DNA of 32,000 nt from Promethearchaeota archaeon (GTDB lineage: Archaea; Asgardarchaeota; Lokiarchaeia; Sigyniarchaeales; SOKP01), in contig JAUWGH010000009.1 in assembly GCA_030606485.1 (NCBI GenBank), positions 30,001-62,000 on the forward strand, in the 5' to 3' direction. Numbering within the stretch: the stretch's first letter is position 1; each line of letters opens with the position of its first letter. A program made the translations under genes and the position numbers. Positions 9,110 to 29,137 of the stretch are shown piece by piece. The notes below the pieces were generated by a model. It did no database searches, was not told where the DNA came from, and saw nothing but the letters and a program-made list of their open reading frames with translations.

Positions 9110-9931
9110 ATGGTACAAGTCTTTAAAATTTTAGATACTGGGGAAACTGAAGAAATTAAAGATACTGGGAGTCCAATTAAGGATATTCTAGACAGTTCTG
9201 AAGTATTTATTATAATCAGCGAACATCGTGATAAAACAATTTGGTTATGGAAAGGTGCAAAATCATCGGTCAGAAGAAAATTTATAGGAGCCCAGAAGTC
9301 GCAGGACATTCGAGGACAAGTTGGAATGCAATATTCAGTGTTTCCCGTAGACCAAGGCGAGGAAAAACCCGATATCATAAAAGCTATTGGCGGCAATCCT
9401 AGTGAAGGATTTGCGAGAGAAATTAAAGATGATAGTGATGGAATAGAGACTCATCCTTTAAGGCAAAAACAAATTTTTGAACCACCAAGACCAGCAGAAG
9501 GGATGAAAATCGGACCGTCACCTCAGGCTCAAGCTGGAATAGGACCTTTATATACTGGAGAGGAATCCATGTCTCGATATTTAGAACCAACTACTGTTGA
9601 TTTTAAATTTGTGATGCAAAAATTAGAAGAAATTGCTACTCCAGAAGGGTTCGAACGAGAATTGATAATTATTGGCTCCCAAACCTTTGCAGTTATCGAA
9701 AAAGTTCAAACATTTTTGGGCAGAAAACAAGTTGAGAAGGTTATAGAGCGTATTAGTTCAATCCCCGAAGGTGTTTTTTTTGCTGAAGGTTATACGCCTC
9801 GAATTTTATCAGAAAATGGAAAAGTATTGGCCATAGAATTTTTAAAAAAATCAAATAGTAATGAAAATAATAGTCCTAATAAAAAGAACATCTTGAAAAA
9901 TCAAATAAAGCAACAATTAGGTTCATCTTAA
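9110..9931 (+). CDS. Single gelsolin-homology domain protein with Pro-rich linker and a C-terminal domain of unknown function
   Basis: LDSSEVFIII...IWLWKGAKSSVRRKFIG...VDQGEE matches the gelsolin repeat pattern (L.S.D.FIL...I..W.G..SS....QG.E). Confidence 0.8.
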   Translation: MVQVFKILDTGETEEIKDTGSPIKDILDSSEVFIIISEHRDKTIWLWKGAKSSVRRKFIGAQKSQDIRGQVGMQYSVFPVDQGEEKPDIIKAIGGNPSEGFAREIKDDSDGIETHPLRQKQIFEPPRPAEGMKIGPSPQAQAGIGPLYTGEESMSRYLEPTTVDFKFVMQKLEEIATPEGFERELIIIGSQTFAVIEKVQTFLGRKQVEKVIERISSIPEGVFFAEGYTPRILSENGKVLAIEFLKKSNSNENNSPNKKNILKNQIKQQLGSS

Positions 9932-10028
9932 TAACAGGAATTAAAATAAAAGATATTTACAAAAAAATATTAAGTCATTTTAATTAATATTTCATAAAAT
10001 TAATTAAATTTCAAAATAAAATCTAATA

Positions 10029-10421
10029 ATGAGCGATTTAACACCACAAGAAGCTCAGAATTTATCCGAGTTCTTAGGAAATATCACCGAACATACTGAT
10101 TTAGAAGCATTGGCGTTAGTTACACGAGAAGGTTTAAGACTTGCTTTTTCATGCGTATCGGGATATAATATCAATCCGGATTTATTTTCGTCTATGAGCG
10201 CTGTAGTTATGAAAAGCGGGGAAGATGCTATTCAAGGACTTGAATATAATAATTTACTTGAAGTAATTCTTCGAGGCGATAACGCCTTTATAATTTTAAG
10301 CAACGCTGGACGATTTTTCCTAATGGGTGCAAGTAGAGAGATTAAAGATTTAGGAAAAATAGTTTCGGTTTTTAGATATTATGCTAAAGAAATCTCTAAA
10401 AGGTATCCAAAATTATCTTAA
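10029..10421 (+). CDS. Roadblock/LC7 (MglB-like) protein
   Basis: 130 aa; LEALALVTREGLRLA, DLFSSMSAVVMKSG, LLEVILRGDNAFIIL, LGKIVSVFRYYAKEI follow the roadblock fold pattern. Confidence 0.8.
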   Translation: MSDLTPQEAQNLSEFLGNITEHTDLEALALVTREGLRLAFSCVSGYNINPDLFSSMSAVVMKSGEDAIQGLEYNNLLEVILRGDNAFIILSNAGRFFLMGASREIKDLGKIVSVFRYYAKEISKRYPKLS

Positions 10422-10678
10422 AATTTCCTAATTCTTTAATTATTTAAGGAAAATAATGTTGTTGTAAATCGCGCTAATCTTGTTAATTTTATAACTTTTT
10501 TTAAAAGACACGAGACATATATTTCAAAATTTTATTAATAATGAGAAGAGGTCCGTTTAAAATTTTTTATTGATTAAAAATAAATTATAAATATAATAAT
10601 TCTAACATTTTATACTAATGAATATTTATTATGTTCTAAAAGGAATAAAATAATGAGTAATATTTTGAAGGGTTAATC

Positions 10679-12844
10679 ATGTCTAAAGAACCATTAATAT
10701 TATTTGTTGAGGTTTTTGATTCAGATTCTGAGAAAGTAATTACCTCTAATGAGAATCTTGAAAAATTGGGTGTTAAGACTGGAGATATAGTTGAAGTTAT
10801 AGATATGGATACAAATAAAACTATACCAGCATTTATTGAGGGCTCTCCGGATGTTTTAGAATTCGCCGGTAAATTTTCCAAAATAATAATAAACAATTTA
10901 AATTTTAAAGGAGTAGAATTAGGTATTCGAGTAAAAAGTGATATTAAAATCGTTCCTGAGCCCACTCCATCCAAAATAATTTCAGTCCCAGAAACCCCTT
11001 CCGCAGAAATAAAACCACCTAAAATTGAATTCGCAATAGGACAACCACAACCAACAACGCCTAAAATACCCACTTATGCACCTCCAAAACCAAAGGAACC
11101 AACTCCTGGAATTACTCCTCCACCCTCCCCACCTGGATTAACTCCAACCCCTCCACCGCCTTCACAACCATCACCAACATATGCACCTCCAAAACCACAA
11201 ATGCCAACACCTGGATTAACCCCCCCACCACAACCACCACAATTAGACCAATTAGGAATCCAACCAAATGGATTACCCAAAACTGAAATAACACCTACTT
11301 ACCCTAATCAAATTGATATATATGCTCTGCAGACTCAAAAAAGTGGAATAATTTTAACACCAAAAGTAGTCGATGATATTGAAGGAAGGGTTCAGTTAAG
11401 TGAAAATAATCTCAGAAAATTAGGATTAGGTGTAGGAATGTTAATTGCATGGGAAGATCCTTTGACACGATCTGTAGGTTCAGCGAGAATTTCTATGGGT
11501 CTTAATGTTACAGATAATCAAATCATAATGGATCAAAATACAAAGGAAGATACTAATATCCTCTCTGATCAAATTGTAGTTTATTCTACTGAACCACCCA
11601 TTCAGAAAATGGAGCAAATTTCCCTAGAAGTTAATTCAAAACCTGAACTTAATGGTTTTTGTCAAGTCAGCCCTAGGATAATGCATTCATTATCTGTGCA
11701 ACCTGGTGATATATTTGCTTTTGAAGACGAATTAACTGGCGCTATTGGAGCCGCAAAAGTTCAAATTAATGAAAGAATGCCTTCCAATCAAATTATTATT
11801 GATACTGAGATATTAGAAGCATCCGGAATCGGTAGTTATGAAGTTATTGTAAGGAAAAACCTAAGGCAAATTATAAATCTACAATCAATAAATTTAGGTA
11901 TAAGCCCAATTAAAGGAGAAAATATGTGGGAACTCGTAAGTACAATACGTAAAAGCGTTGATGCCTTAAAAAGTTGGCTTATGAATTATATAATATTTAA
12001 AGGAATTAAATTACGATGGAATGCAGCTAATATTGCATGTTCTGTCATTGATTGTATACCTGATTTGACAGGAGATATTTTTGCGCAAATAACTCCAGAT
12101 ACTACACTAAGCTTGAGTCCAACGGGGCTTATTCCGTTTAATGCAATATTAATTATTGACATTAGTAGGAGTATGATGGCGCGCGATGTAGAAATTAGAA
12201 ATATTGCTCCTGCAATCGAAGGAATTAAGGCAGCTATGTATTCCCCAGAAATTCAAGAATTTCTGAAGAAATTTAAGGAAGGTATATCAGTTCCACGTCG
12301 AATAGCAGCCGCTTTTGCAGCAGTTCTATTCTTAAGTGAGAAAGTTGGAAGAGGATTTGGAGAAAAAGTGAGTGTTATACGTTTTGCAGATGAATCTCAA
12401 GTATTACCCTTCCAAGGAGGGCTGTATATGGACTCTGCCAGCGGAGAAAAGGGAATTCTTGAAGATTGTGCTCGAATGATTGTTGATAGGATTGGAAACG
12501 CTTATGGTCAAGCAACAAATATGGGTGCCGCTATGCTTGCAGGAAGGGAAGTTCTCTACACATTTGAACAAATAAATCCTGATCAGCCAACTATGATAGT
12601 TATTTTGACTGATGGTGTTCCTACCGATGTAGATAATTTTCTTGAAGCTATTAAACAATTCAGTGAAAACCCAAATGTTGTAATATACATTGTAGGTCTA
12701 GGAAATCCTGATGATAAGTTAATGAATAGAGCTGCTAATTTATGCGGTGGAGAATACTTTAAACCTAATGATGCCGGGGAATTATTAATTTGGTATAGTA
12801 AACGCGCACGAGATTTAACAGTGAAACTTAAAGCTCATAAATAG
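10679..12844 (+). CDS. vWA-domain protein with three CDC48-N-like double-psi beta-barrel (DPBB) segments and a poly-Pro linker; no ATPase domain
   Basis: Complete MIDAS: IIDISRSM, ATNMG, ILTDG; also YIVGLG. DPBB-like segments: SNENLEKLGVKTGDIVEV, VQLSENNLRKLGLGVGMLI, CQVSPRIMHSLSVQPGDIFAF. No Walker A/B motif. Confidence 0.75.
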   Translation: MSKEPLILFVEVFDSDSEKVITSNENLEKLGVKTGDIVEVIDMDTNKTIPAFIEGSPDVLEFAGKFSKIIINNLNFKGVELGIRVKSDIKIVPEPTPSKIISVPETPSAEIKPPKIEFAIGQPQPTTPKIPTYAPPKPKEPTPGITPPPSPPGLTPTPPPPSQPSPTYAPPKPQMPTPGLTPPPQPPQLDQLGIQPNGLPKTEITPTYPNQIDIYALQTQKSGIILTPKVVDDIEGRVQLSENNLRKLGLGVGMLIAWEDPLTRSVGSARISMGLNVTDNQIIMDQNTKEDTNILSDQIVVYSTEPPIQKMEQISLEVNSKPELNGFCQVSPRIMHSLSVQPGDIFAFEDELTGAIGAAKVQINERMPSNQIIIDTEILEASGIGSYEVIVRKNLRQIINLQSINLGISPIKGENMWELVSTIRKSVDALKSWLMNYIIFKGIKLRWNAANIACSVIDCIPDLTGDIFAQITPDTTLSLSPTGLIPFNAILIIDISRSMMARDVEIRNIAPAIEGIKAAMYSPEIQEFLKKFKEGISVPRRIAAAFAAVLFLSEKVGRGFGEKVSVIRFADESQVLPFQGGLYMDSASGEKGILEDCARMIVDRIGNAYGQATNMGAAMLAGREVLYTFEQINPDQPTMIVILTDGVPTDVDNFLEAIKQFSENPNVVIYIVGLGNPDDKLMNRAANLCGGEYFKPNDAGELLIWYSKRARDLTVKLKAHK
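11075..11230 (+). repeat. Imperfect 105-bp (35 aa) duplication in the Pro-rich linker
   Basis: tatgcacctccaaaacca is identical at 11075 and 11180; PTYAPPKPKEPTPGITPPP vs PTYAPPKPQMPTPGLTPPP. Confidence 0.85.
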
Positions 12845-13048
12845 ATATAAATAAAATAACATTAATTAATCAAATTATAATTTTTCTCTTAAATTCTTAT
12901 AATTTTACTTATGTAAAGGCATTCTTCTACTCTACTTATTTTTAAAGGAATTTATTGAGAAAAAATTTTTTTATTTAAATGATTAAGTAATATTATTAAA
13001 CAAGTTTGAAGAATTTCTATTAATAAATAATATAAGATTTTATAAAAA

Positions 13049-13450
13049 ATGAAAGAAGCACGTATTCTTAATATTGATACGAGAGGAAGAATAGTAATCC
13101 CAAATATCTTCCGAAAATCGTTAGGGATCGAGGATGCAACCCAAATAATGATGATAGCAGATAGTGAGAAGAAAGAAATCCGAATCTATCCCGTAGGTTG
13201 GAGTGGAGAAAAAGATACCGTTAAATTTAAAATTTATATGAATGATGTTGCGGGTTCATTAGCACTAATTGCAAAAACCATAGGTGAATTAAAAATCTCT
13301 CTTATTTACGGTGAAGCAATCGTTATTGAGAAAGGAAAATTAGCGATATGGAACGTAATTGCACCTATTCCTGAAGGTTTAAATATTGAAAAAATAATTG
13401 AAACATTAATTCAAAGAGGAAAAGCTCAGAAAATTGAGATAATTGAATAA
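13049..13450 (+). CDS. AbrB/MazE/SpoVT-type DNA-binding domain fused to an ACT-like domain
   Basis: IDTRGRIVIPNIFRKSLGI (AbrB signature); KIYMNDVAGSLALIAKTIGELKISLIY (ACT D-x-x-G-x-L pattern). Confidence 0.75.
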   Translation: MKEARILNIDTRGRIVIPNIFRKSLGIEDATQIMMIADSEKKEIRIYPVGWSGEKDTVKFKIYMNDVAGSLALIAKTIGELKISLIYGEAIVIEKGKLAIWNVIAPIPEGLNIEKIIETLIQRGKAQKIEIIE

Positions 13451-13536
13451 TAAACAAGCGTTAAAATAAAAAATATAAAATATGATTATATCAATAGAAT
13501 ATTTTTTTTAAAGAATTATAAAAAATTAGAATTATT

Positions 13537-14229
13537 ATGGCTAAGAAGAAGATTAAAAAAGAAAAATCAGAAAAGGAAGAAGATTTAAGTGAGCCAGAAG
13601 CTAAGCAAGATGGACTTAGTTTTTTAGAGACCGCTTTGAAAAAAAGTAAAGATAGCAAAAAAACTTTAGAAGAATTTATACTAGGAAAAGCAGAGTCAAA
13701 AATGGAAGAAACTGCAAATGAGGAATATGATAATATCGAGATAACCCCACAATTGACATCTGAAACCAGTCAGGATAAGAAAACGACATCTGAGGAGTCG
13801 GGAATAAAGATCGAGGTTTTAGAGGATTTTAAAGAAATTGAAGATTTATCAACAACACCTCATAGAGAAGAATTGAATTTATATGAGAATATGGGTGGGT
13901 TTTTCGATGAATTATTTAGTAGTTTTAATAATAGATACACAAGATGGGAGAATTCTACTGGAATGATTTTATCCATTTTACGAAAAATGAGAAAAATAAC
14001 AAAAAAAAACACAGAACAACTGATAAATTCAATAGCAAATTTACTTGCAAAAACTCAAAAAGGATTAACTGATTTTGAAATAAAACGTAATGAAATCGAA
14101 AAAATTTCGAATACTAATTTTACCAATATTTCTAAAGATTTTAAAAAAATATTAGGCCTTCTAGAATTACAGATTCAAGAATATCAATTAAAAAAAGAAG
14201 TCTCGGAGCTTTTCCTTAAACCTTCATAA
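13537..14229 (+). CDS. Hypothetical protein: acidic, low-complexity N-terminus and helical/coiled-coil C-terminus
   Basis: 230 aa ORF, K/E-rich, no recognised motif. Confidence 0.6.
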   Translation: MAKKKIKKEKSEKEEDLSEPEAKQDGLSFLETALKKSKDSKKTLEEFILGKAESKMEETANEEYDNIEITPQLTSETSQDKKTTSEESGIKIEVLEDFKEIEDLSTTPHREELNLYENMGGFFDELFSSFNNRYTRWENSTGMILSILRKMRKITKKNTEQLINSIANLLAKTQKGLTDFEIKRNEIEKISNTNFTNISKDFKKILGLLELQIQEYQLKKEVSELFLKPS

Positions 14230-14347
14230 ATAGAGTATTGAATTCATTAAATAATATTTCTTAGTTCTCCTAGAAACCAAGAATTTCATAATTTTTGGGG
14301 GTGTTAATAACAAGGTTTTTTTAAGCATAAATTTCATATTAAATAAT

Positions 14348-15550
14348 ATGGAAAATGAGAAAGAAGAGTTTTTGCGTCCCCTAATCTTAGACATAGGTTC
14401 TGCTAATTTTCGGTTAGGTTTTGCGGGAGACGATCTTCCAGATATTATAGTTCCAAGTATATATGCGGATATAACAGATCCAATATATAAATCAGATAAT
14501 ATTTCTGGATTAAAGGATATATTTGTTTCTAAGAATACAGAAAAACATCTATATGGAATGGAGGCGTTAAAATATAAGGATATTTTGAATAATCATCAAT
14601 TTGTAATAGAAAAAAATTATAATGTCTTGAAAAAATTCTTTTTATATTATTATCATCAATTGGAAATAGAACAGAACTATTTTTTTCAACAGCCATTAAT
14701 TATTTTATTTCCTTTTACCAGCTCAGAAAATGATAAAAAAAAATTGCAACAGATATTTTTAGATGAATTAAATTTTCCAAAAATTAATTTTATTAGTTTT
14801 TCTGATTGTATTTTATCTGCTTTAGGTAAAAATACAGGGGTTGTTATCAATATAGGGGAACAAAATTCATTTGTATCAACATATTTACATGGATATAGTA
14901 ATTTCTCAGCCCGTGAATTTTTTCCAATTGCAGGAAAGGATCTTACAGAATATTTAATGGATTTAATATTATTCAATAAAAAATACAAAATAAATTATAT
15001 AGATCAATGGATTGCACGAGAAATAAAAAATAAATCTTCAATATGTGTTTTTAATCCTAAAGAAACAAAAAAAAAAATTAAAGAAGGATTAAGTTCTTTT
15101 GACCAAGAAATTCAATTACCTGATGGATATATTTTTACGATTAACTTCGAAAGAATAATGATTTCTGAACCTTTATTTAATCCAAATGTGATTCATTTAG
15201 ACACAGTTGAATTACCAAAATTGGTTGCAGAACTTGTAAAAACATGGAATAGGAATGATTGGCTGGAATTACTTCAAAATATTGTTCTTTGTGGGGGGAC
15301 TAGTCTAATTAAAGATCTTGGTAAAAGATTAAAATTGGAAATCGGAAAGTTTTTTTCCAAAAAAATAAAAGATGAGATAAAAGTTATTACACCAACAGGC
15401 AGAGAAAATATGGGATGGATTGGTGCTTCCATTTTATATTCACGTGGATTATTTTCGAAAGGATGGATTGAAAATCCGAATAATCAAAATGAAATTAAAA
15501 ATGATGAAGTTTTATCCCAGCCCCCTTCTAACGCAGTAGATGAGGATTAA
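14348..15550 (+). CDS. Divergent actin-related protein (actin/ARP family)
   Basis: LILDIGSANFRLGFAGDDLPDIIVPS; LPDGYIFTINFERIMISEPLFNP; NIVLCGGTSLIKDLGKRLKLEI; IKVITPTGRENMGWIGASIL. All align with actin hallmark segments. Confidence 0.92.
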   Translation: MENEKEEFLRPLILDIGSANFRLGFAGDDLPDIIVPSIYADITDPIYKSDNISGLKDIFVSKNTEKHLYGMEALKYKDILNNHQFVIEKNYNVLKKFFLYYYHQLEIEQNYFFQQPLIILFPFTSSENDKKKLQQIFLDELNFPKINFISFSDCILSALGKNTGVVINIGEQNSFVSTYLHGYSNFSAREFFPIAGKDLTEYLMDLILFNKKYKINYIDQWIAREIKNKSSICVFNPKETKKKIKEGLSSFDQEIQLPDGYIFTINFERIMISEPLFNPNVIHLDTVELPKLVAELVKTWNRNDWLELLQNIVLCGGTSLIKDLGKRLKLEIGKFFSKKIKDEIKVITPTGRENMGWIGASILYSRGLFSKGWIENPNNQNEIKNDEVLSQPPSNAVDED

Positions 15551-15600
15551 AATGTCAAATATAATTGATTTTAATAAATTTTAAAGGAGTTAATAAGAAT

Positions 15601-18174
15601 ATGCTCTCTCAAAATGAAAAAAGCCAAGAATTTTTCAAAAATTTTGAAAAGCAAATAATCCAAGGTCGAAAATTGTTAAAGTTAGGAAATCATAAGTGGG
15701 CAGATAAGTTATTCACAAAACTATATCTTGATATTCAAAAAGCAGATTGGATAAACCTTCAAAAAAAAGACCAATTAAATGAAATTTTAAATAATTCTTG
15801 GGATAAATATATACAATCTTTAGTTGCACAAACTGAGGAGGGTACAATTTTTGATGTTATAAAATATTATGATTCTTATAATCGTTATTTTGGTTTTTTG
15901 GCAAAACAAGGTAAATATTATGAATTACTACATCACGGAAAAAATCTTATCAAATCTTATATTAATCAACCAGATATTTCAATTAATGGTTTAACAAGAT
16001 TAGTCAACTCTCTTTCAAACATTATGAAAGATGAGGGAAATTATTATGAACTACTTAAATATCAAATCCTATCCATATACCTCCAAAAATCATTTTCTCC
16101 ATCAACTCTATATTATTTTTCTATGAATTATTTATGGGAATTTTTAAAAAAAATTGAACCTTCAAAGAGACCTCTATTACTATATATTTTTTTGGAAAAT
16201 ATTGGAATCTCATATCAATTAAAGGAGAATTCCGATGAATTCATACAAGAGATAAATCATATTATAGTAAATAGATTACGCACCGAATTAAAAAATGAAT
16301 TTTCTCTTTTATCTAGAATAAGAATAAACGATAAAAATTTTAATGAGATCTTCTCAGATTTAGAAAATTTATTGATGTATCTAAATGATATCGGGGAATC
16401 TAATTGGATATTAAGTTTAATTGAAAATATATTTCTAAAAATTATTCAATACGATTCTTTTGATAATGCTGTTGAATATATAAAGAAATACTTATATTTT
16501 TTACTAAAAAGAAATCGATTTGAGATATCATTTAATGTATATAAGTTTTTAGGGAATTATTTTAAAGAATTCCATGAAAATGAATATAATTTTCTTTTAA
16601 TTGAACATTGGGCTGATGCTTGCAAAAATTTTAGAGATCTAAAAGAAAAAAAATATCTTTTGAGATCTTTAGAAGAATTACAAAAAAATATTTCTACTCC
16701 TTCAAATACTAAACAAATAGTGCATTACTTTTATGTCTATAATTTTATTTGGAGGCTAAAAACTAAATTTATTACACCTGAAAAATTTGAATTTTGGAAT
16801 TCAATGTTTTATAGAGCATTTTTTGAAGAACAGGATATAAATTTAAGCGAAAATATAATTAAATTTTTATCCAAAAAAATACAACCATTATTGACAAATT
16901 TACAAGAATTTCGAAATATATGTTCACTGGAGCTTGAAAATATGCCTTTTTTCGATCAACAAGACGAAGGATTACTTAATATATTTGACGAAAAAGAAAA
17001 TCTGAAAATCAAAAATCTCTTAATAAGAATTAGAGATAATGGAGAAATAAACTTTTCTGGAAAATTCGAGGATTCACAAGAATTTCAGGATGTAATTATT
17101 GATGAATATTGGAACGATGATTATTTAATTAAAATTTATAATGATCTTTTTTGGAATATAGAAGTTGAAAAAGATATAACATTTGTAGATTTTGGAAAAC
17201 TTCTGTATTTATCTCTTCCAAAAAAACTTAGAAATATATTTTTAAAATTGAAACAAGATTGTACAGATCATATTCCTCACATATTTTTAATGCTTGATAA
17301 TATAACTATACCGTTTGATTTAATCCACGATGGGTCTGGATTCACTTCATTGAAATATTCTATTGGATACTCTCTTGGAGAACCTGATTTAAGAGGAATT
17401 AATTCGAAAATACCTGTTTTGCCTTTAGATCAATTGAAACAAAAATTTAATATATTAATTTTTGGGAGTTTAAATTTAATGCTTCCATCAAAATGGGATG
17501 ATGCCACAAAAAATAATGTGTTAATGTATCCCTTTAATGAAGGTGTAAATGAGTTAAATCATATTATCCAATATTTCCGTGAATCTTCTTTCGTTGATCA
17601 TATGGAATATTATATACAAGAAAATTTAACACGAGAAAATATTTTAAATAGTATAATCTCAGGCACTAATGACATCATTCATATCATTGGAAATTTATTT
17701 TATTCAACCGAGAATCCAAAAAATAGTTATTTTATTACTAATGATTATCAAACAGTTTCTATTTCAGATATTAATTATGCTATAAAAAAGACTACTACTA
17801 CCAAAAAACCATTCATTTTCTTTAATGTACGTATTTTCAATCTTTTGGGAGATCAATTACCATCAAATTTAAAGGTTATTTCTAAGATAATTCAAAATTT
17901 CGATCAAAACGAGATAACTGGAATTATTGTAAGAATTTTATACGAATTTAACGATAATACAAGGCAATTAATTTCAAATATATATAATAATCTAACTGAT
18001 GGGTTTAGTCAAGGAATTTCTGTATTGAAAGCCCGACAAAAAATTCTTCTAAATAAAGTTGCATCAAATGTTGACCAAAAAGAAATAGATATACAACAAG
18101 ACATGAATGTAGAATCAATCATCGCCTTTAATTCATTTCTTCTTTTTGGAAAGCCTTGGAAAATGCTTGAATAA
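15601..18174 (+). CDS. Large helical N-terminal region plus C-terminal CHAT (caspase/HetF-like) domain lacking the His-Cys dyad
   Basis: CHAT-like segments LYLSLPKKL, IFLMLDNITIPFDLIHDG, DIIHIIGN, PFIFFNVR, SVLKARQKIL, FNSFLLFGKPW. ATG 15601 lies 15 nt after the first G of GGAG and is preferred to TTG 15565. Confidence 0.7.
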   Translation: MLSQNEKSQEFFKNFEKQIIQGRKLLKLGNHKWADKLFTKLYLDIQKADWINLQKKDQLNEILNNSWDKYIQSLVAQTEEGTIFDVIKYYDSYNRYFGFLAKQGKYYELLHHGKNLIKSYINQPDISINGLTRLVNSLSNIMKDEGNYYELLKYQILSIYLQKSFSPSTLYYFSMNYLWEFLKKIEPSKRPLLLYIFLENIGISYQLKENSDEFIQEINHIIVNRLRTELKNEFSLLSRIRINDKNFNEIFSDLENLLMYLNDIGESNWILSLIENIFLKIIQYDSFDNAVEYIKKYLYFLLKRNRFEISFNVYKFLGNYFKEFHENEYNFLLIEHWADACKNFRDLKEKKYLLRSLEELQKNISTPSNTKQIVHYFYVYNFIWRLKTKFITPEKFEFWNSMFYRAFFEEQDINLSENIIKFLSKKIQPLLTNLQEFRNICSLELENMPFFDQQDEGLLNIFDEKENLKIKNLLIRIRDNGEINFSGKFEDSQEFQDVIIDEYWNDDYLIKIYNDLFWNIEVEKDITFVDFGKLLYLSLPKKLRNIFLKLKQDCTDHIPHIFLMLDNITIPFDLIHDGSGFTSLKYSIGYSLGEPDLRGINSKIPVLPLDQLKQKFNILIFGSLNLMLPSKWDDATKNNVLMYPFNEGVNELNHIIQYFRESSFVDHMEYYIQENLTRENILNSIISGTNDIIHIIGNLFYSTENPKNSYFITNDYQTVSISDINYAIKKTTTTKKPFIFFNVRIFNLLGDQLPSNLKVISKIIQNFDQNEITGIIVRILYEFNDNTRQLISNIYNNLTDGFSQGISVLKARQKILLNKVASNVDQKEIDIQQDMNVESIIAFNSFLLFGKPWKMLE

Positions 18175-18258
18175 ATTGTTAGCCAGAGAAACAAAAATAA
18201 TTTAAATATTCAAAATTAATAAAACATAATAAATAAAATAAAAAACAATGAAATTCGT

Positions 18259-18789
18259 ATGGATAGAATATCACAATTAAGATTAGAAAATACTAAATTA
18301 AGAGATAAGGTTAATGACCTCGAACAAAAAATTATCTCCATTGTCGGTCTAATTGAACTTTTTCCTTCCGGAATTGAAGGTAAAAAAGAAGCACTAAATG
18401 AGAAAATTTCATCAGTTATAAATTCAACTGCTTCTAGTTTAAAAATAATAACCCCTAAAATTGGACCTTTCTATTATGAAGATATTTTAAATGTAGCTAA
18501 TAGGGGAATCCCCGTGCTTATGATAATTAATGACAGAAGGTTTATACCACCAGAATTTCAAAAATATTACGATGATTTAAAAACTAAATCCAATGTAAGT
18601 ATTGTGAATAACCCTAATGTAAAATATCTCTTAGTTATGAATGATAAAGAAGTTGTATTCAGTGCAGCATCCTTAGTTAAAAAAGAATTATCTAATTCTA
18701 TTTTAATAGGAACTCATGTAAAAGAAAAAAATAAATTAGCGAGAATTGAACAGATCTTCTTGAATATGCTTCCATCCTTTATGAGATAA
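18259..18789 (+). CDS. Leucine-zipper-like N-terminus plus degenerate PLD/TrmB-like domain
   Basis: RISQLRLENTKLRDKVNDLEQKI heptads; NVANRGIPVLMII and NVKYLLVMNDKEVVFSAASL resemble PLD-fold segments without HxK. Confidence 0.5.
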   Translation: MDRISQLRLENTKLRDKVNDLEQKIISIVGLIELFPSGIEGKKEALNEKISSVINSTASSLKIITPKIGPFYYEDILNVANRGIPVLMIINDRRFIPPEFQKYYDDLKTKSNVSIVNNPNVKYLLVMNDKEVVFSAASLVKKELSNSILIGTHVKEKNKLARIEQIFLNMLPSFMR

Positions 18790-18888: not shown

Positions 18889-21800
18889 TTAAAATTCTTT
18901 TAATATAGATTCCCCTTCGCGTGAATTTAAAATACCTAATCCAATTTCTCGAATTATTTCCAATTTTCCCTCTATCAACATAAATATATTATCTAATTTG
19001 ATTTTTTGATTTTTGGAAATATAATTTTCAATAATTTTACTACTTTCCTTTGATAATTTTGCAATCTCTAAATGAGATTTAATCTTATTAAATCTAGGAA
19101 TGTTAAAATATAAAGGTCTTTTATGATGATGTCGAGTATCTCTTATAATTTTTACACTTTCAAATAAATCAGGAATGTTTAACATCCCACATAGATAATG
19201 TGCCTCATTTTCATTTTCCGTACTATAATAATAACATGTTGAATCGATGAATTTTCTTCCATCAGGGTCGTATATAACACTGGCAACTAAATTTTTTGCA
19301 TTGGGAAAAATTACTTTATATTTGCCTTTTTGATTTTTTTTTACCTTTGGAAGATTATTTGCAGTATGTGGGCTACATAATTTATTTCTAAAATTAATTC
19401 CGATTTTAAACAGATCCTTTTTAGTCTGTTGCTCATAAATTTTACTTATTAATTTCCAATGTTTTCTACTGAAAGGTCCCAAATTTTCAAAATTATATTG
19501 ATATTCTTTATCTAAAGGTAAAAAAATAGAATAAGTTCCACAATAAAACGGATAAAGTTTTCTTGAAAGAGTTGCTTCGAAAATATTTGTTATTTCAACT
19601 CTTTCTCTTTGATAATGGGCCTTTTTCCAAAATCCTTTTGCTTGTGGTGATATCCATGGTTCAATTATTGCAATATTTCCATTCTGAATTAATTTAATAA
19701 TGTGACAGTAAAGTAAAGACTTTGGGATTAGATCAGCCCCTTGAACAAATTTTGGATGATAGTAAGAGGTATAAATTGGAAGTAATTTGTCTTTTTCTTT
19801 AGGTTTTATTAATTTTTTAACTGAATATTTTTTTCCTCTTTCTTTTTGTGAATATGCCCATGGTTCCAAATAATATTGTTCTATTAATCGCATACTTTCT
19901 GAATCCAAGTAATTACAATGACATGGATATTTCTGAAAAACTGTAGTTATATCATCCTTTTTACTTTCATTAAATTTTGCAAAAAAGCAACAACAATCAA
20001 TATTAAAAACTAGATCATTAAAAATAAAAAATTCTATTTCATAAAAATTATCAAATCTCCGGGCAAATTCATTTTGAGAAGAAACTATTAAGGATCGGGG
20101 CATTACAAAAGCAATTTTACTAGAACCCTCTTTTTTAAGATATAAACTAGGAATTTTGTATAGAAAAATAACGGCTTCTTCGATATTAGTAATATTCTCA
20201 GATCCCGGTAAAATATTATATTGTTTGGAAATTAGCTTCAAATTTCGTTTTAAGTCAGAATTTGCATCTTTATAAGTTAACCAAGGGGGATTAGTTATTA
20301 TTAGATCCATTTTCTCCTTTAACAATAACATTCGAATTCCAACTAAATTATTCAAAATATATAACCAAATATGGTCTTTATCGAGTTGCTTTAAATCATA
20401 TAATTGGTTAAAAAAATTAAATAATACTTCTTTTATCAAAGTGTTAGTAGAACCTATTTTTGAATTAAAGAAGGATAGTTCATCTTTATTATTTAAAAAT
20501 TCAATTGCAGCATCCCATGTATCTTCGAAATTTTCAAATTCTTCCCAGACATTATAAATTAATTTTACTAATTTCCTAAAAATACCAATAGATTTTAAAG
20601 ATAAAGCTTCCTCAGGGATTTTTAATTCTTTTTTATCATCGATTGTATTAATACAAAAATTGTAATAATTACCTAATAATATATCAGATTGTTTAGAAAA
20701 TTCTATTGGATCAATAGAATTACATAGATATACATTTATTGATATTTCTTCAATCCATTTTCTTCGAGATTTAAAATATAAAATCAAATTTGCTTTTGAG
20801 GTTAATATTGCAATAGGATTAATGTCAAAACCATAGATTTTATTAACTGATTCAAACCATTTCTTAGTGGGTTTTGCACCTTCTTCTAATTCAAATAAGC
20901 TATCAATTTTTTTTAATAATTCAATTAAAAAAGTTCCACTTCCACAAGATGAATCTAATACAGCATCACCTAAAGTATAAGATTTTTCCACCATTCGTTT
21001 TGCTAATTTTTCTGGAGTATAATATTCACCTAATTGATGTCTAACTCCAGCAATGATCATTTCTTGATAAATTGTTCTAAAGATATCCGTTGCTTCAAAT
21101 TTCATTAATTTTAATTTATCAAACAACTCATCGCATACTCCTGAAACATTGATAACCCAACGGAAAAAATCATAATGAAATAAGGAAATACCTATTGTTT
21201 CAAAATAATTTTCTAAATCCATAAAATAATCTCTGGAATACTCATCAGGTTTTATGAATTCCTTGTATAGTATTAATTTTATTAAAGTACTCAAATATGA
21301 ATGTCTCAAAAAGAGTTCTTTTCCTATTTTCTCGTCATGATAAGCCATACGGAAATTATTTTTCCATTGCTGGAAACAAACAGTATTTTGTCCCTTATGT
21401 TCATCAAAATGGTTTTCTAATCGTGCTAAATATAATATATAGAGAGGGGAATTAACTCCAAATAATATTGCAAATTGTTCAGCATTTAAAACTCTCGGTT
21501 CAAGAAGACATTGAATTAAAGATCTTATAGATTTTTTATTTAGTTCTTGTTGCTGATGTAGTACCAAATGTTCATCATAATACCAGATAAATTCATCAGA
21601 TATCACAATTAAAAGTGAAGGGAAGGATGCATTTAATTTTCGATATTCCTCAATATATTGTTTCCCTTTGGAGCCAATCCAATTTTCTAACTCCTTTTTT
21701 GAAATTTTATATTTAAAATCAATAATTATATCTCCTATTAATGAATCAGGTCTTCCACTTAGCAATTTTTGCTGTTCTTGATAATTAAGTTCAAATTTAT

Positions 21801-21894
21801 CAAATAAACTTTCAAACCAGTGTTCTATAGTATGCTCATTTAAGGCTCTTCTTAAAGGACTGATATCAAAATCTTTATCATAACTTGAAATCAT
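18889..21894 (-). CDS. Type IIG restriction-modification enzyme (PD-(D/E)XK nuclease + N6-adenine MTase + TRD in one chain)
   Basis: RPDSLIGDIIIDFK; GEYYTPEKLA; VLDSSCGSGTFL; GFDINPIA; IITNPPW; C-terminal TRD-like region (YYLCGMLN-type segment HYLCGMLN). Confidence 0.85.
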   Translation of the reverse strand: MISSYDKDFDISPLRRALNEHTIEHWFESLFDKFELNYQEQQKLLSGRPDSLIGDIIIDFKYKISKKELENWIGSKGKQYIEEYRKLNASFPSLLIVISDEFIWYYDEHLVLHQQQELNKKSIRSLIQCLLEPRVLNAEQFAILFGVNSPLYILYLARLENHFDEHKGQNTVCFQQWKNNFRMAYHDEKIGKELFLRHSYLSTLIKLILYKEFIKPDEYSRDYFMDLENYFETIGISLFHYDFFRWVINVSGVCDELFDKLKLMKFEATDIFRTIYQEMIIAGVRHQLGEYYTPEKLAKRMVEKSYTLGDAVLDSSCGSGTFLIELLKKIDSLFELEEGAKPTKKWFESVNKIYGFDINPIAILTSKANLILYFKSRRKWIEEISINVYLCNSIDPIEFSKQSDILLGNYYNFCINTIDDKKELKIPEEALSLKSIGIFRKLVKLIYNVWEEFENFEDTWDAAIEFLNNKDELSFFNSKIGSTNTLIKEVLFNFFNQLYDLKQLDKDHIWLYILNNLVGIRMLLLKEKMDLIITNPPWLTYKDANSDLKRNLKLISKQYNILPGSENITNIEEAVIFLYKIPSLYLKKEGSSKIAFVMPRSLIVSSQNEFARRFDNFYEIEFFIFNDLVFNIDCCCFFAKFNESKKDDITTVFQKYPCHCNYLDSESMRLIEQYYLEPWAYSQKERGKKYSVKKLIKPKEKDKLLPIYTSYYHPKFVQGADLIPKSLLYCHIIKLIQNGNIAIIEPWISPQAKGFWKKAHYQRERVEITNIFEATLSRKLYPFYCGTYSIFLPLDKEYQYNFENLGPFSRKHWKLISKIYEQQTKKDLFKIGINFRNKLCSPHTANNLPKVKKNQKGKYKVIFPNAKNLVASVIYDPDGRKFIDSTCYYYSTENENEAHYLCGMLNIPDLFESVKIIRDTRHHHKRPLYFNIPRFNKIKSHLEIAKLSKESSKIIENYISKNQKIKLDNIFMLIEGKLEIIREIGLGILNSREGESILKEF

Positions 21895-22692: not shown

Positions 22693-23313
22693 CTAGGCAG
22701 TTTCTTGCTCGGGCATTTCACCCTGAAGCTTCTTATAATGATTTAATACCCCTTGACGTGCAGCATAAACAAATCCCCGCTTCACATTAACTCCAGTAAT
22801 AGCTATCGTCTCATAGATTAGCGTTTGATTTAACTTTGCTTTATCAAGAACCTCACGAATTTTATTTATCTCTACAATATCTTCTAAATCCCGTTTATTT
22901 GCACAAACAACAAGTGGAACTTCCGCTGGGTCTGAAAAACTTTTAGAAATTAATCTATCTCCATAAAATTGTAATAATTCTTTTAAACTCCATATATTTT
23001 CTTCCCACTGGTCGATTAAACTGTCCCAAAAGAAGAGGATACAATCAGTTCCTTTGAGGACCGTTCGTCTCTGGAATTTGTGGCGTCTCTGGCCGGCGAC
23101 GGTATAAACTTGAAACACCACATTGCTTACTCGGGCTACTACTCTATCAAAGAACAATGTACGACCAGTTGGATCAGCTATCTGCTGCATATCACCTGAA
23201 GCAAGTCCCTCTTTCTTGTATACCCATTCTAAGGCAGTTGTTTTTCCTCCTAAAGATGGACCCCAGAATACAACTTTGAAAACCAGTGTTCCATCCCCGC
23301 GACGACTTGGAAT
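22693..23313 (-). CDS. Small GTPase, MglA-like/Ras superfamily; start lies upstream of the ORF-track call (probable ATT at 23313)
   Basis: G1 GPSLGGKTT (upstream of ATG 23190), G2 RTLFFD, G3 YTVAGQ, G4 ANKRD, G5 ETIA. In-frame TGA at 23343-23341; SD AGGAGAGG at 23328-23321. Confidence 0.9.
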   Translation of the reverse strand: MPSRRGDGTLVFKVVFWGPSLGGKTTALEWVYKKEGLASGDMQQIADPTGRTLFFDRVVARVSNVVFQVYTVAGQRRHKFQRRTVLKGTDCILFFWDSLIDQWEENIWSLKELLQFYGDRLISKSFSDPAEVPLVVCANKRDLEDIVEINKIREVLDKAKLNQTLIYETIAITGVNVKRGFVYAARQGVLNHYKKLQGEMPEQETA

Positions 23314-28494: not shown

Positions 28495-28643
28495 CTTAAA
28501 TTATTATTAACTAAGATAAAATATATAAATTTAACATTATTTAAAGCTTTTAAATAATTTCCACCAATAAGATATCTTAAATTTGAATCTGAAGGTTAGA
28601 CATTTTCTTATGATTGATGATAGCAAAGATGAAACTTTAATTG
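28495..28643 (+). repeat. Right copy of the ~145 bp imperfect direct repeat
   Basis: tttaaagcttttaaataatttccaccaataagatatcttaaatttgaatctgaaggttagacattttcttatgattgatgatagcaaagatgaaa; offset about 5.1 kb from the left copy. Confidence 0.85.
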
Positions 28644-29137
28644 GTTTGATAGCAGATACACACATCCCTTCCCGATGTGCAGAAATTCCTAAAATAATTA
28701 TTGATGATTTTTTAGATAAGGGAGTAGATTATGTGTTTCATTTAGGCGACTTTACTGAGTATCGTGTGTATGAAGGGTTGCAAGATATATTTGGAAAGGA
28801 AAAGGTTATTGGAATTAGGGGGAATATGGATGATTCGAAGATAAATTCAAAATTGCCTGAACGCATAGAATTAACCGCGTATGGACATAATATTTTATTA
28901 TTACATGGCTGGGGTGGTCCTAATATGGTGATACGACGTCTAAAGAAACATGTTGATTTGGATAAATACCATATTATATTATTTGGACATATACACAAGC
29001 CATTAACCGAGAAGGTTGATAATCAATATTTTATTAATCCTGGGACCCCAACAGATAAAAAATTCACGGACATTAACTCATATGGTTTTTTAACTTTATC
29101 AAAGGAGAAAATCGAACCTAAAATTTGTTATTTATAA
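28610..29137 (+). CDS. Calcineurin-like metallophosphoesterase, YfcE/MJ0936/Vps29-like
   Basis: IADTH, HLGD, GNMD, LHG, FGHIH, INPGT motifs; ATG 28610 preferred to TTG 28583. Confidence 0.9.
   Translation: MIDDSKDETLIGLIADTHIPSRCAEIPKIIIDDFLDKGVDYVFHLGDFTEYRVYEGLQDIFGKEKVIGIRGNMDDSKINSKLPERIELTAYGHNILLLHGWGGPNMVIRRLKKHVDLDKYHIILFGHIHKPLTEKVDNQYFINPGTPTDKKFTDINSYGFLTLSKEKIEPKICYL

Follow-up and report, generated by a model that had tools for sequence, protein, structure and literature searches.

Genes in the window

The DNA analysed here, referred to throughout as the window, is a stretch of 32,000 nucleotides from a Promethearchaeota archaeon (GenBank assembly GCA_030606485.1) and corresponds to bases 30001-62000 of contig 7 in a 3.75-Mb genome of 13 contigs. 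It carries a run of eight consecutive open reading frames (ORFs) on the + strand, which includes the gene for a divergent actin-related protein (ARP) and, directly downstream, a gene for a protein that joins a tetratricopeptide repeat (TPR)-like solenoid to a CHAT-like domain (Table 1). The original prediction, made from the sequence alone, had proposed that all eight genes belong to an undescribed scaffold or signalling system centred on the ARP, and the eight ORFs are present at the coordinates that it gave.

Table 1. The eight co-oriented genes of the window and the basis on which each product was assigned
Predicted product	Position	Strand	Basis and remarks
One-domain gelsolin with C-terminal 'X' domain, 273 aa	9110..9931	+	Orthologue profile; first gene of the trio
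Roadblock/LC7 protein, 130 aa	10029..10421	+	Pfam Robl_LC7; second gene of the trio
CDC48_N-like beta-barrel, Pro-rich linker and vWA domain, 721 aa	10679..12844	+	Pfam; third gene of the trio
AbrB/SpoVT-type swapped-hairpin domain with ACT-like C-terminal half, 133 aa	13049..13450	+	Structure matches; probable regulator
Helical-hairpin protein, 230 aa	13537..14229	+	Alignment and AlphaFold2 (AF2) model; no known family
Divergent ARP, 400 aa	14348..15550	+	Pfam Actin
TPR-like alpha-solenoid, small beta unit and CHAT-caspase fold, 869 aa	15601..18174	+	AF2 model
Leucine-zipper-like N-terminal helix and PLD fold without HKD, 176 aa	18259..18789	+	Alignment, PLDc_2

The intergenic gaps in the ORF list are, in order, 97, 257, 204, 86, 118, 14 and 84 bp, and the G+C content is ~25-33% across the run. 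The 14-bp gap follows from the opening of the seventh ORF at a TTG codon (position 15565). The alignment of its orthologues begins at ATG 15601, which is the probable start judged from these sequences, and leaves 50 bp between the ARP gene and the CHAT-like gene. With this start, the gap sizes described previously hold, at 97-257 bp in the early part of the run and 50-118 bp after position 13049. Nearly all of the fold assignments made in the original prediction were likewise recovered. The weak ones are the CDC48_N/double-psi beta-barrel (DPBB) region of the third protein (Pfam E 5.8e-5, below the cut-off) and the ACT half of the fourth. In a direct Pfam scan, the first and fifth genes had no match.

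The segment 13000-18800 of the window is contained in 20 sequence runs, all of DNA from cold-seep and marine-sediment metagenomes, and no RNA run was among the 20 listed. Reading terminators or promoters from counts of T-runs was rejected as too weak to define transcription units in a region that is ~85% A+T.

The conserved ARP core

A set of 40 relatives was searched with the CHAT-like protein and the ARP, and ~20 kb around the pair was fetched in 20 genomes and compared with all window proteins using tblastn. The CHAT-like protein was found in every other genome searched of the family to which the window belongs (f1; 24 genomes, 13 genera), in the one genome of family f3 and in four of the 11 genomes of family f2. 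The ARP gene is directly upstream of the CHAT-like gene in each of the 27 genomes, that of the window included, in which the contig could be checked. Moreover, the genes for the helical protein, the ARP, the CHAT-like protein and the phospholipase D (PLD)-like protein form a block with the same order, the same orientation and short gaps in all 22 loci (the 20 fetched, that of Candidatus Lokiarchaeum ossiferum and that of genome G172), which represent three families of one order, and in every one of them the helical-protein gene directly precedes that for the ARP. The median gaps within this core are 53, 25 and 88 bp, and the gap between the ARP and CHAT-like genes ranges from -31 to 87 bp, with overlapping frames in three loci. 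In f2 and f3, the block is kept at identities of 24-32% for the ARP and the CHAT-like protein and 28-43% for the PLD-like protein, and the flanks are different. The synteny check suggested in the original prediction thus gives a core order that is kept far beyond close relatives.

When 400 genomes of the phylum were searched with a profile, full-length orthologues of the CHAT-like protein were confined to one order, with matches in 118 of 134 f1 genomes, six of 14 f2 genomes, the single f3 genome and none of the four genomes of family f4. Outside the order, only CHAT-domain paralogues were matched, in seven genomes of other families among the 400, and those aligned (from G164, G165, G166 and G167) have an intact catalytic dyad.

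The profile of the PLD-like protein also identified orthologues in two f2 genera, g14 and g17, that have neither the CHAT-like gene nor an ARP orthologue. In g14 (the closed genome G032, and G025 and G028) and in g17 (G030 and G034), the helical-protein and PLD-like genes abut. No match to the CHAT-like protein was found in these two genera, where the best actin match is at the Lokiactin level (~1e-34). The flanking ORFs in G032 and G025 match those of Promethearchaeum syntrophicum MK-D1 in size and order (~850 and 300 aa upstream, ~405 aa downstream), and the gene order in g17 is AbrB, helical protein, PLD-like protein. The ARP and the CHAT-like protein are a co-inherited two-gene cassette, present or absent together. 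As the cassette occurs in f1, f3 and part of f2, parsimony favours its loss in g14 and g17 as the explanation of the distribution among families. Lineages that lack the cassette and retain the genes that flank it provide natural controls.

The AbrB gene adjoins the helical-protein gene in f1, f3 and genus g17 of f2. In the other f2 genera, among them those with the ARP and CHAT-like genes, no AbrB gene was found beside the core. In f2 loci L019-L021, L033 and L036, a Hef-type helicase-nuclease (DEAD, ERCC4 and HhH domains) and a PHP-domain protein are encoded upstream of the core. A conserved protein of ~405 aa, with no Pfam family and one weak match to DUF2301, is encoded downstream of the core in f2 loci.

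Both cultured Lokiarchaeia carry the cassette. Exact-sequence look-up identified the ARP and the CHAT-like protein of P. syntrophicum MK-D1 as QEE15652.1 (DSAG12_01479) and QEE15653.1 (DSAG12_01480), and the PLD-like and helical proteins of L. ossiferum B-35 as UYP47645.1 and UYP47648.1, respectively. UYP47646-47647 of the latter species were assigned by their position between these two, the ARP being UYP47647.1. The proteins are named 'hypothetical' or 'CHAT domain protein' in public records. UYP47647.1 is among the three ARPs of L. ossiferum, is not Lokiactin, and the ARPs of this species are transcribed below Lokiactin (PMC9834061). In literature searches with the protein accessions, PMC9834061 was the only paper found to mention UYP47647, and the accessions are absent from its supplements. 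Full-text searches found no paper describing an Asgard ARP with a CHAT, separase, TPR-CHAT or pseudoprotease module, and the surveys of Asgard eukaryotic signature proteins that were found mention none of CHAT, caspases and ARPs. In the L. ossiferum ARP gene (L031 10700-11836, - strand), the frame is open for ~45 codons upstream of the first ATG, GTG or TTG, and this extension aligns to the conserved N-terminus. That alignment suggests that translation of this gene starts at a non-canonical codon.

Two enzyme folds lacking catalytic residues

The AF2 model of the seventh protein (predicted local distance difference test, pLDDT, 83; predicted template modelling score, pTM, 0.74) consists of an alpha-solenoid at residues ~11-460, a small beta unit and a caspase-fold domain at residues ~570-869. 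At the sequence level, the Pfam CHAT match of the window protein is below the cut-off (E 5.8e-4), and the family profile searched against sequences in the PDB retrieved only a designed repeat protein (E 0.52). With the model as query, Foldseek ranked Csx29/TPR-CHAT first (E 1e-10), followed by the CHAT-containing anti-sigma factor DdvA and then by separases. Using VIA-align, model residues 481-866 were superimposed on the CHAT domain of Csx29 with Z 18.2 and a root-mean-square deviation (rmsd) of 3.5 Å over 280 residues, and on the separase of C. thermophilum (5fc2_B) with Z 14.9 and an rmsd of 4.1 Å over 281 residues, separases as a group scoring Z 14.4-15.9. Gingipain R (Z 14.2), a metacaspase and caspase-7 were also among the matches. 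The modelled domain is therefore assigned to the caspase-hemoglobinase fold. No fusion to an actin domain was seen among 94 CHAT-like homologues of 540-871 aa, the length range searched.

The positions of the catalytic dyad were located by aligning seven orthologues from f1, f2 and f3 with four active CHAT paralogues of other Asgard genomes, in which the motifs read HFAGH and NACESS. The catalytic His is replaced by Asn in the CHAT-like orthologues (Asn710, at least 90% conserved), and the catalytic Cys by Ile, Val or Leu in all seven of those aligned, across the three families. The 21-sequence alignment of the CHAT-like family contains no invariant His or Cys, and a family-specific insertion of ~17 residues carries invariant Pro641 and Trp644. 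The earlier view that this CHAT protein lacks its usual catalytic motif is borne out by the absence of the His/Cys dyad.

The eighth protein shows PLD-like sequence similarity. PLDc_2 is matched by 16 of 20 orthologues (best E 3.2e-6) and FilR1_middle by four of the 20, the direct Pfam match of the window protein being below the cut-off (E 0.0098). The family profile aligns with the nuclease NucT (E 0.0038), and the column of the catalytic position contains Asn, Ser or Leu. No invariant or near-invariant His that could belong to an HxK(x)4D motif is present in the 20-sequence alignment, in agreement with the prediction of a PLD fold without its catalytic motif. The invariant features of the family are the leucine-zipper-like N-terminal helix and an LPSFMR sequence at the extreme C-terminus, and the UniRef name of the L. 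ossiferum orthologue is 'TrmB C-terminal domain-containing'. As judged by these alignments, both enzyme folds would have been catalytically dead since before the families diverged. Relatives of the PLD-like protein (E ~1e-20) occur in other families of the class in different gene contexts, among them positions beside giant ORFs of 2,399 and 2,341 aa (L039 2677-10484, + strand, and L041 9813-17410, - strand).

Defence systems often use CHAT proteases and PLD nucleases as effectors, and the protease of Craspase is TPR-CHAT. The top structural matches, Csx29/TPR-CHAT and DdvA, an anti-sigma factor of a defence locus, would fit an anti-virus defence system. Nevertheless, we regard this as very improbable, given that no orthologue retains the catalytic residues of either would-be effector and that the cassette is single-copy, vertically inherited and in a fixed chromosomal context across a family of >100 species. 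PADLOC was also blank for seven of the eight proteins, the helical protein having a marginal match to DrmC (E 0.0018), and no cas or sensor genes were seen in the flanks scanned.

The ARP and its predicted partner

The ARP matches Pfam Actin over residues 11-374 (E 1.5e-46), and every one of the 60 best solved-structure matches of its family profile is an actin (E 4e-59 to 2.5e-54). Of the four actin paralogues in the genome, the ARP has diverged the most. The Lokiactin-type paralogue is a separate copy (Pfam Actin 2.1e-133) to which the ARP is 28-29% identical, and on this sequence comparison the ARP does not appear to be the Lokiactin orthologue. In the nucleotide site, the DxG of phosphate-1, the Gly of phosphate-2 and the GG of the adenosine motif are conserved, and the position of actin D154 is occupied by Asn in most f1 members and by Asp in f2. 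The assignment as an ARP, with an actin fold and nucleotide-binding motifs, is therefore sound. Compared with the Lokiactin-type paralogue, the ARP has two insertions, in the DNase I-binding loop (D-loop) and subdomain 2.

A complex was modelled from three chains, namely the TPR part of the CHAT-like protein (residues 15-465), the helical protein (residues 110-230) and the ARP (residues 5-385, the scored partner), with alignments of 21 rows. It scored an ipSAE of 0.69 (0.71, 0.69 and 0.69 in the separate runs), as compared with 0.00 for the best of three controls; replacement of the TPR chain likewise gave 0.00. The runs share at least 98% of their contacts, and the pLDDT of the partner is at least 80. 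The score mark was passed by 58 of 80 solved complexes and by two of 110 mismatched pairs, a calibration that is only rough for a three-chain job with its own alignments. We are aware of no solved structure in which an actin-fold protein is bound to a TPR-CHAT protein, and it thus seems unlikely that the score merely reproduces a known complex.

The predicted interface is formed by residues 30-153 of the TPR part and residues 42-64, 76-80, 217-219 and 257-260 of the ARP. By alignment to the Lokiactin-type paralogue, the latter correspond to the D-loop, subdomain 2 and the LPDG tip of subdomain 4, placing the contact at the pointed end. The contacts with the lowest error involve Asn42, His43, Trp45 and Asp103 of the TPR part and Leu80 of the ARP, all of which are invariant or at least 90% conserved, and Leu80 is beside Ile79 (81%). 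Conservation in the TPR interface is 0.645 versus 0.566-0.591 elsewhere in the domain (permutation p 0.02-0.06). An interface between the ARP and the CHAT protein was one of those that the original prediction proposed to model, and a confident ARP-TPR contact with clean controls is what the modelling returned. No confident contact between the ARP and the helical protein was listed in the three-chain model, which is neither support for such a contact nor evidence against it.

The gene order could also be conserved without any physical complex, through co-regulation or chance, the interface then being an artefact of the model. This alternative finds some support in that binding rests on one in-silico prediction, that the calibration excluded three-chain jobs with user alignments and that conservation of the ARP interface is not significant. 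We consider it unlikely since the gene order and the close spacing are retained at 24-32% identity where the flanks differ, three loci have overlapping frames, the ARP and the CHAT-like protein are strictly co-present or co-absent, and all three controls scored 0.00 against 0.69.

The helical and AbrB-ACT proteins

The fifth protein has a Lys-rich (poly-Lys) N-terminus, a variable disordered linker and a conserved C-terminal domain of ~115 aa. Its AF2 model includes helices at residues 115-191 (77 residues) and 195-227 (33 residues) with a pLDDT of ~90. The long helices implied by the earlier 'coiled-coil' assignment are present in the model, where they form a hairpin. A Foldseek search with the model against the PDB gave nothing with E <3, and the protein atlas gave no usable match. 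Sub-threshold Pfam matches to Forkhead and PBC, each in eight of 21 members, were taken as compositional. A WH2/thymosin-like identity for the conserved 'RKMRKITKKNTE' was also dropped because the order of the motif differs and the complex model gave no support.

The fourth protein matches AbrB structures with E 3.7e-4 and ACT proteins with E 0.15-0.9, and its direct Pfam match, of AbrB/MraZ type, is weak and below the cut-off. Hence, of the AbrB-ACT assignment the AbrB half is supported and the ACT half weakly so. As its gene is adjacent in f1, f3 and g17, this protein appears to be linked to the helical and PLD-like pair rather than to the ARP.

The gelsolin, roadblock and vWA genes

The first three genes of the run form a trio that is separable from the ARP core. 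A profile built from eight orthologues of the gelsolin gene matches the Lokiarchaeota two-domain gelsolin 2DGel (7whg_G) with E 6.9e-10, the Asgard one-domain gelsolin 7c2f_B with E 7.7e-7 and eukaryotic gelsolins with E 1e-3. The gelsolin call is thus supported for the G-domain, even though the direct Pfam scan was blank. The second protein matches Robl_LC7 with E 2.6e-6 (27.5 bits versus a cut-off of 23), and its orthologues are 56-95% identical and always encoded between the gelsolin and vWA genes. The vWA domain of the third protein (Pfam E 1e-8) includes a DxSxS metal ion-dependent adhesion site (MIDAS) motif, and the translation has a long Pro-rich linker.

The trio adjoins the ARP core in seven of the 20 fetched loci, from six f1 genera, as it does in the window. 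In the remaining fetched loci, including that of the sister species, it is absent from the locus or split off by inserted genes. An intact trio is found 87 kb from the core and inverted in G001, the sister species of the same genus, on contigs other than that of the core in G014 and G019, which belong to the same family, 316 kb from the core in P. syntrophicum MK-D1 and 306 kb from it in L. ossiferum. Where the vWA gene is present in the locus, the gap between it and the AbrB gene is 117-7112 bp, with inserted genes. The YjeF gene upstream and the genes for an MglA-like GTPase and a phosphoesterase downstream are likewise syntenic in f1, and the adjacency of trio and core within this family is therefore a matter of general collinearity. 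The trio and the ARP core are neighbours by gene-order ancestry and not necessarily by function.

In genus g17 (L034 8779-9729, - strand), a gelsolin-X paralogue of 316 aa, 24% identical to the product of the first gene of the window, is encoded directly after the AbrB, helical-protein and PLD-like genes. It is the sole hint that gelsolin belongs with the core genes.

Extension of one scaffold or signalling system over all eight genes, from gelsolin to pseudo-PLD, is consequently the part of the original prediction that did not stand, the trio being detached yet intact in five genomes. In favour of this extension are the adjacency of trio and core in the window and the seven other loci, and the second, independent gelsolin adjacency provided by the g17 paralogue. 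With the trio 87-316 kb away or on other contigs in those five genomes, a variable gap between the vWA and AbrB genes and general collinearity within f1, we judge it quite unlikely.

Comparison with known systems

The best structural match of the TPR-pseudoCHAT protein, Csx29 of the type III-E Craspase, has the same architecture of an N-terminal TPR solenoid and a C-terminal CHAT domain. The two share ~10% sequence identity and differ in that the His/Cys dyad is absent here and the predicted partner is an actin-fold protein. Craspase includes Cas7-11/gRAMP and Csx30/31 in a CRISPR locus, whereas the neighbours in the 22 loci are the ARP upstream and the pseudo-PLD downstream. No cas genes were present among the Pfam-scanned ORFs of the flanks, where AbrB, vWA, methyltransferase, Hef and PHP were found. 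Csx29 likewise works bound to a partner, Cas7-11 (PMC9935389). Separase also consists of a helical solenoid followed by a caspase-like C-terminal domain. The CHAT-like protein is about half the size of separase and without an active site, and its likeness to separase is no greater than that to bacterial TPR-CHAT, so specific orthology to separase is not shown.

In eukaryotic ARP complexes, such as the pointed end of dynactin with Arp11, Arp2/3 and the Arp4/Arp8 assemblies of INO80 and SWR1, non-actin subunits cover the ARP. The core would resemble them in that dedicated non-actin partners keep a divergent actin-fold protein as one subunit, with the contact predicted at the pointed end (subdomains 2 and 4). 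It differs in that no homologue of ARPC, of p62/p25/p27 or of an HSA helix was identified and in that a pseudoprotease takes the place of the partner. In sequence, this ARP lies nearer to actins than to any ARP in the list of its 60 best solved-structure matches, and its binding to filaments is hypothetical.

Clusters of an actin-family gene with small lineage-specific partner genes are also found in the crenactin-arcadin operon of Thermoproteales and in ParMRC and MamK loci. In contrast to these, the actin member of the ARP core is an accessory paralogue beside a separate Lokiactin, and we are not aware of partners with dead enzyme folds for crenactin-arcadin, ParMRC or MamK. The effector domains of TrmB and FilR1 resemble the pseudo-PLD in that a dimerising helix is followed by a PLD-like domain without HxK. 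The pseudo-PLD has neither their winged-helix DNA-binding domain nor the second, sugar-binding subdomain, and its LPSFMR tail is family-specific.

Possible roles of the ARP core

We consider it moderately probable that the gene run represents two neighbouring modules, the second of which is an operon-like set of the AbrB-ACT, helical-protein, ARP, TPR-pseudoCHAT and pseudo-PLD genes, with the ARP and its TPR-pseudoCHAT neighbour forming a non-catalytic scaffold. The first TPR repeats (residues 30-153, with Asn42-His43-x-Trp45 and Asp103) would clamp the pointed end of the ARP at its enlarged D-loop, subdomain 2 and the LPDG tip of subdomain 4. The predicted interface does not include the barbed-end face. 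Such a pair would hold a single ARP and block its pointed-end contacts. The likeliest use would be docking on, capping, anchoring or seeding Lokiactin filaments, or presentation of the ARP as a switch that depends on nucleotide. Adaptor roles may fall to the dimeric pseudo-PLD and to the helical protein with its Lys-rich N-terminus, and the AbrB-ACT protein may be a local regulator. The proposal of an undescribed ARP-centred system thus gains support in respect of the conserved four-gene core, the dead enzymes and the predicted interface, and loses it in respect of the eight-gene extent. For the core it stands because gene order is conserved widely and the interface is confidently predicted.

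Several observations weigh against this interpretation. T-runs of 5-8 are present before the helical-protein gene and before the ARP gene, and a single transcript for all genes is therefore not established. On the ARP side of the interface, conservation does not exceed the background significantly (p 0.14). The complex model covers the TPR half only, with the CHAT half, and hence its steric fit, omitted, and the alignments used are shallow, their 21 rows being drawn from a single order. The persistence of the helical-protein and PLD-like genes where the ARP and CHAT-like genes are absent implies that part of the module works without the ARP. Finally, co-immunoprecipitation of Lokiactin from L. 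ossiferum enriched a profilin, five gelsolins and an ARF GTPase, with no ARP listed (PMC13716822), which speaks against a stable role at Lokiactin filaments.

Among the roles that the scaffold might have, a cytoskeletal one, as a cap, anchor or seed for Lokiactin filaments, is ranked first, on thin evidence, by analogy with ARPs that have partner subunits covering their pointed ends. A bolder version, possible and put forward tentatively, is that these proteins constitute a lokiarchaeal ARP holo-complex, in which a separase-like pseudoprotease caps the pointed end and is joined by the dimeric pseudo-PLD and the long-helix protein. It would be an archaeal counterpart of the eukaryotic ARP machines, with an origin either earlier than Arp2/3, dynactin and the nuclear ARP complexes or independent of them. 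If this is true, both cultured species would possess a nucleator, cap or anchor of filaments, or else a regulatory module based on an ARP.

A serious rival, though one that we hold to be somewhat unlikely, is a gene-regulatory or chromatin-type assembly comparable to the nuclear ARPs of INO80, SWR1 and SWI-SNF. In this case, the ARP would be the subunit that changes conformation with nucleotide, the AbrB-ACT protein would bind DNA, the TrmB-like pseudo-PLD would sense a ligand and dimerise, and the helical protein would supply a long docking helix. The AbrB-type DNA-binding protein is adjacent in f1, f3 and g17 of f2, as would be expected, but it is not beside the core in the f2 genera that have the ARP and CHAT-like genes. 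Similarly, the HKD-less sensor domain found in TrmB/FilR1 regulators is similar to the PLD-like protein, but neither the latter, having no helix-turn-helix, nor the TPR-CHAT protein has a DNA-binding domain. The DNA-metabolism genes Hef and PHP upstream of the core would also be in keeping with this rival; their adjacency is limited to f2 and may be coincidental. Further points in its favour are the poly-Lys N-terminus and 77-residue helix of the helical protein, and the absence of the ARP from the reported Lokiactin partners.

Asgard ARPs are cited as eukaryote-like features and, to our knowledge, neither a function nor a partner is known for any of them. On the model, the TPR-pseudoCHAT protein would be the first concrete candidate partner for an archaeal ARP. 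The hypothesis is specific in that it names the ARP/TPR-pseudoCHAT pair, a pointed-end contact and the key residues, in a cassette present in both cultured Lokiarchaeia. We know of no system that combines an actin-fold protein with TPR-CHAT and PLD-fold pseudoenzymes. If the scaffold interpretation is correct, dead enzymes would have been recruited in a prokaryote to serve as scaffolds around a protein of the actin fold, and an architecture of the separase/Csx29 type would be found in a cytoskeleton-related setting among the closest relatives of eukaryotes.

Genes downstream of the core

In 12 f1 loci (L005-L015, L022, L023), the PLD-like gene is followed by a co-oriented gene for an N6-adenine methyltransferase/Eco57I-like protein of ~730 aa. 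The sister species, which is ~90% identical elsewhere, has a co-oriented form of 732 aa. In the window, the corresponding position is occupied by a methyltransferase-like gene on the opposite strand (18889-21894, - strand), the product of which is 1001 aa long and ~30% identical. It looks like a replacement, or an inversion plus a replacement.

Further downstream, the window includes the genes for the MglA-like small GTPase (22693-23190, - strand) and the phosphoesterase (28583-29137, + strand). Across f1 genera, the MglA-like GTPase shows 76-98% identity, and its gene lies a few kb downstream of the core in those fetched loci that include it. Between these two genes in the window, at 24-27 kb, is a stretch with a G+C content of 40-48%, as compared with a background of 23-35%.

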